Shown here: positions 4,526 through 12,299 of the stretch, piece after piece
How the letters are laid out: the number at the start of each line of letters is the position of its first letter
Numbering within the stretch: the first letter of the stretch is position 1
Origin: a virus
Taxonomy: Duplodnaviria > Heunggongvirae > Uroviricota > Caudoviricetes
Direction: 5' to 3' (one strand)
Length of the DNA: 19,341 nt
Virus record (IMG/VR): IMGVR_UViG_2700989509_000025
Location: 1 to 19,341 of that record
Program-made: the position numbers and the translations under genes
Notes under the pieces: model-generated
The model's database searches: none
Seen by the model: the letters and a program-made list of their open reading frames with translations, nothing else
What the model was told of the DNA's origin: nothing

Positions 4526-4777
4526 CTAACAGGATGCTCTGACTCGCAATTCATCCAGCAGTTTATCATTTCCCATAATGTCACTTACCCTCATCGGTAA
4601 AAAAATTGCCTTTCGACCATTACGATACATCATTGATTTTGGGGTTTCAGGGAAGTAATCCATTTCGACTATAACTGACAGGTCATCACGACGTATGACT
4701 GCGTATTTGCAACTAAATAGTTTCTTTATTTTTTCCACGATGCCTCCGAGTTTATAAGTACAAACGGTTATATCCAC
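4526..4777 (-). CDS. Hypothetical small protein (start uncertain)
   Basis: 83-aa ORF in AT-rich spacer; codon at 4777 is GTG with no clear SD; internal ATGs also lack SD. Confidence 0.25.
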   Translation of the reverse strand: MDITVCTYKLGGIVEKIKKLFSCKYAVIRRDDLSVIVEMDYFPETPKSMMYRNGRKAIFLPMRVSDIMGNDKLLDELRVRASC

Positions 4778-8586: not shown

Positions 8587-9357
8587 TCACTTTTCCGATA
8601 CAACACGGCGGGAAGAATCAGTAATCTGTCGAACAATATCCCGGTGCTTGTTCAGCTCCCGCAGCGCGGCGCAGACTCGCTCCCACTTCTGAACATCACT
8701 TTTCGCCCTGCGCAGCGCCAGGTTTGCCCTGCGAAGGGACGGAAAAATCAGCTCATCTGCTTGCGTTTCGGTAAACGATGGCAACGGCTGCACAATGTCC
8801 GCCACAGTTTCTGTTTTAATTTCTTCCTGTGTTGCGGCTTCCCGGACTGGTAACGCAGCACCTGCTGGCTGAGGAAAGGCCTTACCATCACTTTCCGTTA
8901 CCAGCGCGGCTTTCGGCTCTGCTGGTAAATTATCGCCCGGCATGCAGTAACGAAATCTACCGTTCTGATTAACGCGTGCCAGCCGCCCCGTTGCGGTTAC
9001 CACCGCCAGCGTGGAAGCAACCTTGCGAGTACTGACACCGAACTTACCCGCTATTTCTTCACAGGTTTTAGCCCCCTCCTGAGCGATAAACTCAATCATC
9101 ATGTTAGCGCTAACTTTTGGAGCGACCTCTTCGGTCAGCATATCCTGTGTTTCAGATTTTACTGGCCGCTCTTCGGTTACCCGGGATTCACCTTCGACAG
9201 CCAGAAACCAGGTGTGACCCGTTTTATCAACAACGCCATTTTTTTTGAGCTCCCACAGTTCGTTGATAACTTCTTCACGGCTGATATCAATTCGTGCCGC
9301 CAGTTCAACAGAATTGGCTTTTCCCATCGCTTTCAGTGCATGTAATACGGTTTCCAT
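8587..9357 (-). CDS. Phage protein with N-terminal winged-helix-like domain (possibly DUF1627-type)
   Basis: 256-aa ORF, SD GAGGTGA 8 nt upstream; N-terminus METVLHALKAMGKANSVELAARIDISREEVINELWELKKNG looks like a wHTH. Confidence 0.55.
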   Translation of the reverse strand: METVLHALKAMGKANSVELAARIDISREEVINELWELKKNGVVDKTGHTWFLAVEGESRVTEERPVKSETQDMLTEEVAPKVSANMMIEFIAQEGAKTCEEIAGKFGVSTRKVASTLAVVTATGRLARVNQNGRFRYCMPGDNLPAEPKAALVTESDGKAFPQPAGAALPVREAATQEEIKTETVADIVQPLPSFTETQADELIFPSLRRANLALRRAKSDVQKWERVCAALRELNKHRDIVRQITDSSRRVVSEK

Positions 9358-9382: not shown

Positions 9383-10123
9383 TCACATACCCTGACGTCC
9401 AACGTTTGACCGCCAGCTCTCCCAGTTAAAATTCACCCAACGACCACCGTTCATGGTCATCCGGTCCATAATCCTCTCACCAAGAAGCGTGCTCATTGCG
9501 GCATGATTCAGGTTTGTCAGCATCCCGACACTGCGCAGTGATGCCGTCCGGCGGTCAACAATCTGGTGCAGTACCACCTGCTCGTTTTTCGTCTCACGCT
9601 GGATGCCAATTTCGTCAAGAACCAGGAGGTCCACTTCGCACAGTTCACGCAAAAATTTTTCGCCTGACTGCCCGTCGTCATAGCTGGCGTGCAGGGCGCT
9701 CATAACATCAGCCACGGTAACCACAATCACTGTCTGACCGTCTTTCAACAGGCGATTCCCGATAGCTGCCGCTAAGTGATTCTTCCCGGTACCAGGTTTT
9801 CCGCTGAACGCAAAATTTGTACACCCGGTCATCAGTTCATCGGCGATGGATTTCGCCTGGCTTAACGCGTATCGCTGGCCGTCGTTCTGCACCTGGTAAT
9901 TCGCAAACGAGCATTTACGGTGCAACGGCTGGATGCCTGAGCGATTCAGAATTTTTTCCACCCGCAACTGACAATTCAGGCGGTTGATCTCCTCGCTACG
10001 TTTCTGGCCTTCAGCAAGTTGCCACTCGCGCCACTCCGCAACCGTTCTGAATGGGGCGGTTACATGTGGTGGGGTCAGTCTGCGGATACGCTCCAGAACG
10101 CCTCCTGTCGCAATATTTTTCAT
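9383..10123 (-). CDS. DnaC-like replicative helicase loader (IstB-like AAA+ ATPase; YdaV-like)
   Basis: 246-aa ORF with Walker A FSGKPGTGKNHLAAAIG and Walker B DLLVLDEIG; immediately follows the replisome-organizer gene. Confidence 0.8.
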   Translation of the reverse strand: MKNIATGGVLERIRRLTPPHVTAPFRTVAEWREWQLAEGQKRSEEINRLNCQLRVEKILNRSGIQPLHRKCSFANYQVQNDGQRYALSQAKSIADELMTGCTNFAFSGKPGTGKNHLAAAIGNRLLKDGQTVIVVTVADVMSALHASYDDGQSGEKFLRELCEVDLLVLDEIGIQRETKNEQVVLHQIVDRRTASLRSVGMLTNLNHAAMSTLLGERIMDRMTMNGGRWVNFNWESWRSNVGRQGM

Positions 10124-10129
10124 GGCCTG

Positions 10130-10918
10130 TTACCCCCTGAAGCCTGGCGGGATCGCACTGTCCGGCAACGAGACGGTGTTAACCTGTCGGAGCAACGTCT
10201 CAGGCCGAACACCTTTCGGTGCGAACAAGCCCTGGTATTCATTGGCAATGCTGTGTCGAATCACCTGCTCAGGTGTAAAACCCTGCTGACGGAATTTTTC
10301 CAGTTCCCGTATCGCCCCGTTAGCGCCCTGCTCCGTTCGAATCGGTTTTCGCAATGCCTGCCTGAACTGAACCCACTCATGCCAGAGTGTTTCCGGCAAC
10401 CAGTCAGGCAGCTCGATAGCCTCCGGCTCGAATTTTTTAGACGCTCGTTTTTGGCGAGGGGGATTTAGGGGGAGATCAGTATTTATATCTTCCTCTTCCT
10501 CTTCCTCTGGTAACGCTTTTTGATCCGTTTGTGTAACGCTGCCAGCGTTACCTTTTCGTTTCAGTTCGCGTATTTTTGTAACTCGCTCGTTTGTAACCGC
10601 CCGTTTTTTAGAGCTTTTTCCGTTATGACGTTCAAAGTTAGGTAGAGAAAGCCCACCGTCATTTTCGACCAGCCATCCAACCTGAATTAACGCATCAGCA
10701 AAACCAGCCATAAAAGTGATGCGATCTATTGCACTTTTTGTAACGCCGCGAGCGTTACAATCTGCATTACCGTCTATCATTTGTTGATCCGCCCATGCCC
10801 AGAAGCGAATAACCTTCCCTAATGCGGCATCTGGATCAATATTCAGAATCTCAGCAAGCCTGAATATTTCCGGCTTATCCGGCGTAATAACCTCGAGCTT
10901 TATCCAGTTTGAAGCCAT
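10130..10918 (-). CDS. Replication initiator / replisome organizer (lambda O-like function; YdaU-like)
   Basis: 262-aa ORF with acidic linker PEEEEEEDIN; position between cII-like gene and DnaC-like loader; contains two copies of a 19-bp palindrome, with a third just upstream. Confidence 0.65.
   Translation of the reverse strand: MASNWIKLEVITPDKPEIFRLAEILNIDPDAALGKVIRFWAWADQQMIDGNADCNARGVTKSAIDRITFMAGFADALIQVGWLVENDGGLSLPNFERHNGKSSKKRAVTNERVTKIRELKRKGNAGSVTQTDQKALPEEEEEEDINTDLPLNPPRQKRASKKFEPEAIELPDWLPETLWHEWVQFRQALRKPIRTEQGANGAIRELEKFRQQGFTPEQVIRHSIANEYQGLFAPKGVRPETLLRQVNTVSLPDSAIPPGFRG
10533..10551. repeat. 19-bp palindrome GTAACGC-N5-GCGTTAC, copy 1 (inside initiator gene)
   Basis: gtaacgctgccagcgttac; extra GTAAC half-sites at 10510..10516, 10578..10582, 10593..10597. 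Confidence 0.8.
10740..10758. repeat. 19-bp palindrome GTAACGC-N5-GCGTTAC, copy 2 (inside initiator gene)
   Basis: gtaacgccgcgagcgttac. Confidence 0.8.
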
Positions 10919-10931
10919 TTGTTTTCACCTT

Positions 10932-10950
10932 GTAACGCTCGCAGCGTTAC
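10932..10950. repeat. 19-bp palindrome GTAACGC-N5-GCGTTAC, copy 3 (noncoding, 14 nt upstream of initiator start, next to its SD)
   Basis: gtaacgctcgcagcgttac. Confidence 0.8.
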
Positions 10951-10995
10951 ATTTAACTGATACCGAACAAAACAATCCGGCACGATTAATTTCAA

Positions 10996-11418
10996 TCAAT
11001 GCACTACGACAGAATCGCCGGGCGACCCACCACCGCTGAAATGTGCTTTCCGGTAAACGGCCTGGACTGCATCATCATGCGCATCAATTGCCGTACTCAA
11101 CGCTTCCTGCGCCGCCAGTAATGCACGGCGTTCCAAGGTATCGAAGATGCAGAGTCGGTGACGCAGCTCGCGCGGAAGAATTGCCAGAACCGCAGGGATC
11201 AGTTTCTGAATTTTTTCCCTTTGCGCTTTCGTTTCACCTTTCAACCAACGGTGATAGATATTCTGCTGATTGTTCCAGTCCTTGCCTGGTACAAGGGGCA
11301 ATTCGCCGCCCCCCTGGCGCAGATATTCTTCAGTAATTGCGTTAGCGACCCACGCCTGCCCTTTTTCGGCTGCCAGGGCTAACAACACTGATTCGATGTG
11401 CTCATGCCTGATTTTCAT
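10996..11418 (-). CDS. YdaT-like protein (cII-position gene of Rac-type immunity region)
   Basis: 140-aa ORF directly downstream of cro-like gene with ATGA overlap; same position and size as recalled Rac ydaT. Confidence 0.6.
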   Translation of the reverse strand: MKIRHEHIESVLLALAAEKGQAWVANAITEEYLRQGGGELPLVPGKDWNNQQNIYHRWLKGETKAQREKIQKLIPAVLAILPRELRHRLCIFDTLERRALLAAQEALSTAIDAHDDAVQAVYRKAHFSGGGSPGDSVVVH

Positions 11419-11657
11419 GAATCAACCGCTCCTATGCTGTTTTCGCTATGCTTACCGTCTGGGGGGAATACATCGTCAAGTCCACAATGAGCGCCAAGCC
11501 GATTAAGGGTAGAAACAATTTTTCTGCACTCCTCTAGTCCAGGGGTACGAAAATTTGCTTCGTAATTTGCCAGTCGGCTTTGTATCCACCCTAACTGAAC
11601 AGCAAGTTGTCTTTGAGACAGCCCAAGCTGTTTTCGATATGTTGAAATTTTGTTCAT
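11415..11657 (-). CDS. Cro-like HTH regulator (YdaS-like)
   Basis: 80-aa ORF, HTH segment LGLSQRQLAVQLGWIQSRLANYE; SD GGAGG 7 nt upstream; divergent from repressor gene. Confidence 0.7.
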   Translation of the reverse strand: MNKISTYRKQLGLSQRQLAVQLGWIQSRLANYEANFRTPGLEECRKIVSTLNRLGAHCGLDDVFPPDGKHSENSIGAVDS

Positions 11658-11753
11658 TGAAAACCTCCGATGACAATTTTAAACACATCTTGTGTTATAT
11701 GGTCAAGCTGTTTTGTGTTTTGTGTAAATCACGATTCGTGATACAAGGATGCA
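11658..11753. promoter_or_regulatory. Divergent immunity promoter/operator region
   Basis: Minus-strand promoter TTGACC (11701..11706) with TAAAAT/TTAAAA around 11676..11682; palindromes AACACA-tct-TGTGTT (11682..11696) and ATCACGA-t-TCGTGAT (11728..11742). Confidence 0.55.
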
Positions 11754-12173
11754 ATGGAAAAAGAAAACGAAAAAATTGCCGCTAGTAGGCTCAATGACAA
11801 AATTGCAATGCGTCTTAAAGAGCGCAGGCAGAAGCTTGGTTTATCTCAAGGAAAACTTGCTGAAATCTGCGGATGGACGCAATCGCGTATAGGTAACTAT
11901 GAGGCGGGTAGCAGAAATGTTGGAGTGCATGACGCTGTCGTATTGGGAAAGGCACTTGGCATATCTCCTCCTGAGCTCCTCTTTGGAGAACAGGAATCTT
12001 CTGAATTGTGGTTAAATGAATCCCAACGAAAACTTCTTGAGTTGTTTAACCAGCTACCGGGCTCAGAACAACAACGAATGATTGAGCTATTTGAAGTCCG
12101 GCTAAAAGAAATCGATGAGTATGTAGAAAAATATTTGAGAGGCAGGCTTAAAGATAATCCCCCACCGGAGTAA
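11754..12173 (+). CDS. Prophage repressor, XRE-family HTH (RacR-position), no obvious S24 peptidase domain
   Basis: 139-aa ORF, HTH LGLSQGKLAEICGWTQSRIGNYEAG; SD AAGGA upstream; divergent from cro-like gene. Confidence 0.7.
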   Translation: MEKENEKIAASRLNDKIAMRLKERRQKLGLSQGKLAEICGWTQSRIGNYEAGSRNVGVHDAVVLGKALGISPPELLFGEQESSELWLNESQRKLLELFNQLPGSEQQRMIELFEVRLKEIDEYVEKYLRGRLKDNPPPE

Positions 12174-12228: not shown

Positions 12229-12270
12229 GTACCATCATCATATGACACCCACCACAAAACACATTTCGTG

Positions 12271-12299
12271 TTGACACAAGAAAACGCATTGTGTTTAAT
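12271..12299 (+). promoter_or_regulatory. PL-like early-left promoter with overlapping operator-like palindromes
   Basis: TTGACA (12271..12276) - 17 nt - TTTAAT (12294..12299); flanked by AACAC-atttc-GTGTT and ACACAAG...TTGTGT inverted repeats. Confidence 0.55.

Follow-up and report, generated by a model that had tools for sequence, protein, structure and literature searches.

Inverted repeats within and upstream of the initiator gene of a Rac-like prophage as a candidate lambda-like replication origin

We analyzed a 19,341-nucleotide stretch of viral DNA (IMG/VR record IMGVR_UViG_2700989509_000025; here, the window), a Rac-like prophage beside ttcA with 99.9% identity to a prophage of Escherichia coli O157 strain 493/89. 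In and just upstream of its replication initiator gene (positions 10130 to 10918, minus strand), a 7-bp half-site, GTAACGC, is arranged in three palindromes and in additional unpaired copies. We infer from comparative sequence evidence that these are probably the initiator-binding sites of a lambda-like origin located inside the initiator gene. Our confidence differs among the parts of this reading: the repeats are almost certainly a functional DNA element, the initiator is very probably the protein that binds them, and a function as an origin is probable.

The palindrome GTAACGC-N5-GCGTTAC occurs in perfect form at 10533 to 10551, 10740 to 10758, and 10932 to 10950, where a first-pass annotation of the sequence had placed it, and nowhere else in the window, even with up to two mismatches allowed. 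Dinucleotide-preserving shuffles gave a mean of 0.04 matches, and none of 200 reached three. The half-site itself is found 10 times in the window (1.9 expected), with 7 of the 10 copies falling within 10510 to 10950, while the background of exact half-sites in the flanks of the locus is 0.21 per kb. Neither the palindromes nor the half-sites are a product of chance. The upstream copy (UP; GTAACGCTCGCAGCGTTAC, 10932 to 10950) is noncoding, lies between the ydaT stop codon and the initiator start codon, and can be extended to TGTAACGC-N5-GCGTTACA at 10931 to 10951; as had been proposed, it directly touches the ribosome-binding site of the initiator gene (AAGGTGA-N6-ATG). Palindrome A (10740 to 10758; gene positions +161 to +179) encodes CNARGVT, part of a loop in the initiator's N-terminal domain (N-domain), and palindrome B (10533 to 10551; +368 to +386), a perfect 9+1+9 repeat (GTAACGCTG-C-CAGCGTTAC), encodes GNAGSVT in a disordered stretch before the interdomain linker. 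Palindromes A and B share one reading frame (xGT AAC GCx xxx xGC GTT ACA) and impose the repeated peptide motif that the first-pass annotation had recognized. Spacing between successive dyads in the window is 192 and 207 bp.

Homologous loci were obtained from species-representative genomes, metagenomes, exact-protein look-ups, and phage records. The main comparison comprised about 23 nonredundant loci from at least 12 genera (Mixta, Erwinia, Yersinia, Serratia, Winslowiella, Rouxiella, Samsonia, Rahnella, Pantoea, Pectobacterium, Klebsiella, Salmonella, and Enterobacter, together with metagenomic contigs), with initiators 39 to 96% identical to that of the window. The first-pass annotation had named a lack of conservation at the DNA level as the result that would count against the sites; we found the opposite across this range of identities, with arms kept at three positions relative to the ATG (−32 to −44, +149 or +161, and +356 to +425). 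The arms are nearly invariant, while the five central bases are free and both the flanks and ordinary third codon positions vary. Palindrome A is found at +149 or +161 in every locus with the matching N-domain type, and its arms are invariant in 21 of 23. The UP dyad is present in 15 of 23 loci and missing in the other 8, where a different upstream gene abuts the initiator; it is therefore accessory. UP is also missing in phages of other genera, and palindromes A and B are always kept. Among 84 near-identical relatives, 76 have all three sites and 8 have two, and no arm variant was seen, while the spacers differ (TGCCA, TGGCA, TGCCG, TGACA, and others); these relatives came from a scan of viral_contigs that returned only sequences 97 to 100% identical and so inform on spacer drift rather than deep conservation.

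GTAACGC sites were also found in Xanthomonas phage CP2, Pseudomonas phages VW-6S and PAN70, Ralstonia phage YL1, and E. coli phage TL-2011b, as well as in circular phage-like replicons of E. coli and Pusillimonas. With these included, the diverged loci that show near-invariant arms at matching positions number about 30 and span Enterobacterales, Xanthomonas, Pseudomonas, Ralstonia, and Pusillimonas. The genes that flank the sites vary, with ydaT, a methylase, KilAC, or Roi upstream and a DnaC-like gene, a ParB-like gene, a P-like gene, or none of these downstream; within the 1.5 to 3 kb retrieved on each side, the only gene common to all loci is the initiator. In four loci of Klebsiella and E. 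coli (L122, L123, L126, and L135), the initiator and its sites are followed by a ParB-like helix-turn-helix (HTH) gene or unrelated small genes and by no DnaC-like loader; such initiators may therefore use host DnaC directly.

Additional half-sites accompany the dyads. The first-pass annotation had noted extra GTAAC half-sites from 10510 to 10597 beside the codons of a run of six glutamates, and we confirmed such half-sites. One is an exact copy at 10510 to 10516 on the minus strand (GCGTTAC in gene orientation, +403), inverted and distal, encoding K-A-L-P. The others are GTAACTC at 10578 to 10584, likewise on the minus strand (GAGTTAC in gene orientation, +335; encoding R-V-T), which is an exact GCGTTAC in several homologs, and GTAACCG at 10593. 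As a rule, one more direct half-site, encoding a conserved D-G-N-A, precedes each dyad by 12 bp in gene orientation. The window retains decayed versions of these, GTAATGC at 10764 to 10770 (minus strand), 12 bp 5′ of palindrome A, and GAAACGA at 10556 to 10562, 5′ of palindrome B, both given in gene orientation; the copy 5′ of palindrome A is an exact GTAACGC in most homologs. The stretch around palindrome B (cluster B, 10510 to 10584, codons 112 to 137) is an array of three to five half-sites oriented → → ← … ← with a 12-bp period, and in homologs additional half-sites go with a matching gain of NAxSVT residues in the protein.

The last half-site of cluster B directly adjoins a 21-nucleotide polypurine tract (AGAGGAAGAGGAAGAGGAAGA on the gene strand; 10488 to 10508, minus strand), which encodes the EEEEEE linker just past the 10510 half-site in the reading direction of the gene and is followed by TATAAATA. 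The junction, in which the last half-site is followed by CC(T)AGAGRAAGAGRAAGAG, is kept in all specificity types, GC-rich hosts included. We consider the polypurine tract together with TATAAATA a candidate unwinding element. About 40 to 70 bp past the tract and after an A+T stretch, many homologs (L005, L021, L122 to L126, and others) have an inverted, G+C-rich element of the form CCCCCC-N4-6-CCCCCC-AAGGGG, which encodes PPLNPPKGK and recalls the palindrome to the right of ori-lambda; the window holds only part of it (10447 to 10468). The same neighborhood is the site of an insertion of about 114 residues, found right after the acidic linker in many E. coli and Salmonella homologs (including P0012, P0048, and P0064, of 376 to 380 residues) at a place corresponding to about 10470 to 10485 of the window. 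It carries the motif GGRIDIVVTDRNGVRCGIELD, has no Pfam match, and might represent a mobile or nuclease-like element inserted at the putative origin.

The identity of the half-site follows the initiator rather than the host. The initiators of phages epsilon15 and phiPSA1, at about 32% identity, have GTCCGC half-sites in place of GTAACGC, which repeat every 11 bp in → → ← ← order within two intragenic clusters (epsilon15, 55>, 66>, 79<, 101< and 334>, 345>, 358<, 369<; phiPSA1, 66>, 79<, 101< and 355>, 366>, 379<, 390<), and in both phages the second cluster adjoins a polypurine tract, CCAGAGAAGAGAAGAGAAGAGAAGA. In Vibrio phage 1.211.B (47% identity), GTCAC-N9-GTGAC occupies the places of sites A and B, at +152 and +359. 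Epsilon15, a Salmonella phage, has GTCCGC, while a Salmonella prophage (L124) has GTAACGC. Loci with homology in the C-terminal domain (C-domain) only, namely the Rac prophage of E. coli K-12 with its initiator homolog YdaU and seven others (L010, L011, L013, L016, L018, L025, and L026), lack the sites. Altogether, these comparisons show that the sites are under strong selection at the level of DNA and change with the lineage of the initiator N-domain.

The initiator (262 residues) has a winged-helix-like N-domain (residues ~11 to 95), a disordered linker (98 to 159), and a C-domain in common with K-12 YdaU. It matches PHROG 2509, annotated "replication initiation protein" (E = 1e-89), its match to the O-like phrog_678 is limited to residues 77 to 236, and no Pfam family matched at E ≤ 10. 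In an AlphaFold2 (AF2) model (mean pLDDT, 66; confident within the domains), the N-domain is helical, with a helix-turn-helix and a beta-hairpin wing (residues 61 to 91), the predicted recognition helix lying at about 73 to 80 and the wing at 84 to 91. In the model, site A encodes a low-confidence loop, and site B and the linker are disordered. The sites are therefore placed where the protein can tolerate imposed residues. Most likely, the N-terminal winged-helix-like domain is the part that would bind them. The C-terminal tail of the initiator (…PDSAIPPGFRG; 10130 to 10190, the last ~19 codons) weakly resembles the C-terminal end of the primosomal protein DnaT (NCBIfam, E = 0.004), and a sequence search of the PDB gave only weak similarity of the tail to DnaT (2ru8 and 9zbt, E = 0.2 to 0.8). 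K-12 YdaU has the same DnaT-like tail, a possible point of contact with host replication proteins.

We considered whether the repeats might act as RNA or single-stranded hairpins, for example by affecting the stability of mRNA, its processing by RNase III, or translation at the ribosome-binding site, or by serving as an antisense terminator. They might also reflect a functional repeated peptide, NAxxVT. Each copy could form a stem of 7 to 9 bp, the UP copy sits at a ribosome-binding site, the peptide motif is conserved, and site B read on the plus strand and followed by CTTTTCGTTT has a terminator-like, antisense score. However, terminator-like matches occur at chance level (1 found, 1.7 expected), and a search of Rfam returned nothing relevant in 10000 to 11500. 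Every change in the imperfect copies is one-sided and uncompensated, breaking the pairing; the arms never covary, their sequence is itself fixed beyond mere complementarity, and half-sites that have no partner are equally conserved. Because of the one-sided changes, the conserved unpaired half-sites, and the lack of an Rfam match, the element appears not to be an RNA helix. A peptide constraint accounts for the pattern no better. The first-pass annotation had suggested asking whether synonymous variants preserve the palindrome, and in columns defined by the protein alignment the arms are indeed preserved and codon choice is fixed: all 28 sequences use AAC for Asn55, and Ala135 (GCG) and Leu136 (TTA) each reach 100% identity at the third position, where the mean over third positions is 0.59, while background usage in the initiator genes, counted outside half-sites only, is 51% for AAC, 24% for GCG, and 15% for TTA. 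Nearly all third positions that are at least 95% identical, Met and Trp codons aside, lie within half-sites or the polypurine tract. The variable residues of the motif are those allowed by NGT and NGC codons (C, G, or S at one position; G, S, C, or R at the other). Because one copy is noncoding, the reading frame of palindrome B differs in six loci (L019, L113, L114, L116, L120, and TL-2011b/L127, at +358 in the last), and synonymous positions are fixed, the conservation pattern indicates that peptide constraint is not its cause. Taken together, we regard a hairpin or peptide function as highly improbable.

Several observations weigh against an initiator-bound origin at these sites. The polypurine tract and TATAAATA are very conserved beside the last half-site, yet they are only about 55 to 62% A+T in the window. 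The dyads do not adjoin one another like the four iterons of ori-lambda but are scattered, with one upstream of the gene and two inside it at the spacings given above. A Foldseek search of the AF2 model against the PDB gave winged-helix matches that were nonsignificant and no significant match to an initiator, the best being a staphylococcal plasmid initiator (4pta, E = 0.45). We found no binding or replication data on this initiator family in the literature that could be searched. A simple-consensus scan predicted no sigma-70-like promoter near 10932 to 10950 or any other site, its only prediction being at 11676 to 11647, before the cro-like gene; classical operator-type autorepression at the UP site is therefore not supported. 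Finally, the N-domain coding sequence itself contains sites A and B, and their coinheritance with it must therefore stem in part from linkage, although we consider it unlikely that the binder is encoded elsewhere in the phage or host.

That linkage leaves room for a different binder, a host factor or another phage protein that uses the sites for nucleoid organization, partition, packaging, or transcription control, since the association of sites with the N-domain does not by itself identify the protein, and the locus encodes other HTH proteins (the cro-like and repressor-like proteins, YdaT, and the DUF1627 protein YdaW). Against this, ydaT, ydaW, and the loader gene are not conserved across the site-bearing loci, and the sites persist from Enterobacterales to Burkholderiales, switching with the initiator lineage rather than with the host. 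We know of no E. coli transcription factor whose consensus fits the TGTAAC-N9-GTTACA geometry, with the boxes of TyrR, the LacI family, and GntR considered. A different binder is decidedly unlikely, if less so than a hairpin or peptide. Somewhat more plausible, but still unlikely, is that the sites are autoregulatory only, with initiator dimers forming DNA loops that keep their own gene from being transcribed through or translated, and with the true origin elsewhere in the prophage. Such a role would agree with the position of UP against the ribosome-binding site, with UP-to-A distances that fall in steps of roughly 10 bp, and with the dyad form of all the sites, which is generally known from the operators of iteron-plasmid Rep proteins. 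It fits less well with the distribution of UP, which is optional while A and B are always kept, or with the lack of a predicted promoter near any site, and it leaves unexplained why the junction between cluster B and the polypurine tract is kept across specificity types.

Returning to the origin that we favor, we can outline how it might work. Initiator dimers would occupy the 19-bp dyads, and further subunits would bind the flanking half-sites 12 bp apart. Cluster B would nucleate the complex beside the polypurine and A+T stretch (10488 to 10508 plus TATAAATA), where the duplex would open, and the C-domain, common to K-12 YdaU, would bring in the DnaC-like YdaV together with host DnaB. Auxiliary anchoring, by looping or wrapping, would come from site A and from the UP site about 190 to 200 bp away in those loci that have it. 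Since UP touches the ribosome-binding site, it could also limit expression of the initiator. Center-to-center distances from UP to A fall into classes of 182, 192 to 193, and 202 to 204 bp, that is, roughly 10-bp steps among few independent lineages, which suggests helical phasing for looping. A bolder version, which we consider doubtful, is that UP, A, and B form a single looped or wrapped machine that folds about 400 bp of the initiator's own gene and ties initiator shutoff to origin firing, with the (GAR)n tract as a dedicated unwinding or helicase-loading element that replaces an A+T-rich one. If this were true, the half-sites GTAACGC, GTCAC, and GTCCGC would represent a natural recognition code paired with N-domain variants.

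Of the systems already known, the one nearest to the proposed arrangement is ori-lambda, the O-some origin of phage lambda and the Stx phages, where 19-bp inverted-repeat iterons and an unwinding tract lie in the middle of gene O and where extra iterons add residues to the O proteins of Stx phages (PMC7466680). As in lambda, the candidate origin lies within the initiator gene, in DNA that encodes the interdomain region, with cluster B preceding the acidic linker. The inverted repeats are about 19 bp long, occur in several copies, and are conserved with the putative DNA-binding domain of the initiator; their number varies among relatives, with additional sites adding protein residues; and the tract that adjoins them may play the part of an unwinding element. 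The initiator has two domains and is followed by a helicase-loader gene in an early operon, which in lambda runs rightward. The analogy drawn in the first-pass annotation, of an origin at the interdomain linker, thus fits: the densest cluster ends exactly at the linker-coding polypurine tract, which is conserved even where the half-site has switched. The two systems differ in that the initiator is not a homolog of lambda O by Pfam (Phage_rep_O, no match at E ≤ 10), in that the sites form no compact tandem array other than the short array of cluster B, in that extra single half-sites are arrayed at a 12-bp period, in that a (GAR)n polypurine run takes the place of lambda's plain A+T block next to the sites, and in that the loader is DnaC/IstB-like rather than lambda P.

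A comparison with origins of Rac-like phages, also suggested by the first-pass annotation, held for the type of prophage, the gene order, and the C-domain but not for the sites. In the K-12 Rac prophage, oriJ, placed there by genetic mapping, is cited as an active origin (PMC3945230; Potrykus 2000 via PMC11014345). The prophage in the window is of the same Rac type and shares the ttcA integration site, the gene order (racR-like, ydaS-like, ydaT, initiator, ydaV, and ydaW), and an initiator C-domain with 82% identity. In contrast, the N-domain of K-12 YdaU is an unrelated DUF1376 domain, and the K-12 locus (L002) has no GTAAC-N9-GTTAC sites; the element in the window is therefore distinct in sequence from K-12 oriJ. 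The searchable literature yielded no fine map of oriJ. In K-12 ydaU (2511 to 2578 of L002; gene positions +392 to +459), we observed (A/G)TGTTCAAACA three times, twice in direct and once in inverted orientation, just before the linker-coding region and thus in a place equivalent to that of cluster B. These may be the iterons of K-12 oriJ, while as a loose pattern TGTTCAAACA is not significant (with up to two mismatches, 6 matches are reached in 8 of 200 shuffles).

The Rep proteins of iteron plasmids (RepE, pi, and RepA) offer a further parallel: a winged-helix initiator, a short half-site repeated in arrays and dyads, and a dyad near the start of the initiator's own gene that could autoregulate it. 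Unlike those systems, the sites described here are intragenic, no promoter overlaps the upstream dyad, and no significant structural or sequence match was found for the initiator, its best structural hit being the nonsignificant 4pta.

The initiator gene is embedded in an early operon on the minus strand, which begins with a cro-like HTH gene (11415 to 11657) and continues with ydaT (10996 to 11418), the initiator, ydaV, which lies directly downstream and encodes a DnaC/IstB-like helicase loader (9383 to 10123), and a ydaW-like DUF1627 gene (8587 to 9357). A repressor-like HTH gene (11754 to 12173) is divergent from the operon. Inverted repeats resembling AAACACATCTTGTGTT lie between the divergent repressor-like and cro-like genes (11681 to 11696) and again downstream of the repressor-like gene (12257 to 12272 and 12281 to 12296), and these are probably immunity operators. 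The window also has three tRNA genes (Arg, Arg, and Ile; 4526 to 4777) upstream of the prophage late region, and the prophage carries hokD, kil, recE/recT, and ralR, cargo usual for Rac-like and Stx-like prophages.

No description of the GTAACGC sites was found in the searchable literature, which did not extend to older subscription papers on oriJ. Most likely, on the comparisons presented here, the sites represent a lambda-like origin arrangement in an initiator family for which none is described in that literature, although origins within initiator genes are already known as a kind. The analysis places a candidate origin and a candidate initiator recognition sequence to the base for a replication module that has no Pfam domain. 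This module is widespread: E. coli O157 and Shigella carry it in Rac-like prophages, it is present in phages such as TL-2011b, CP2, VW-6S, PAN70, and YL1, and epsilon15 and phiPSA1 have a form of it in which the half-site is switched. The natural switches of the half-site are ready material for specificity swaps. Moreover, the sites are a case of overlapping codes, in which a DNA motif dictates both residues (GNA, NAxxVT, and KALP) and codon choice across two classes of Proteobacteria, and this bears on annotation, on codon optimization and recoding, and on how "conserved residues" are read in this family of initiators.

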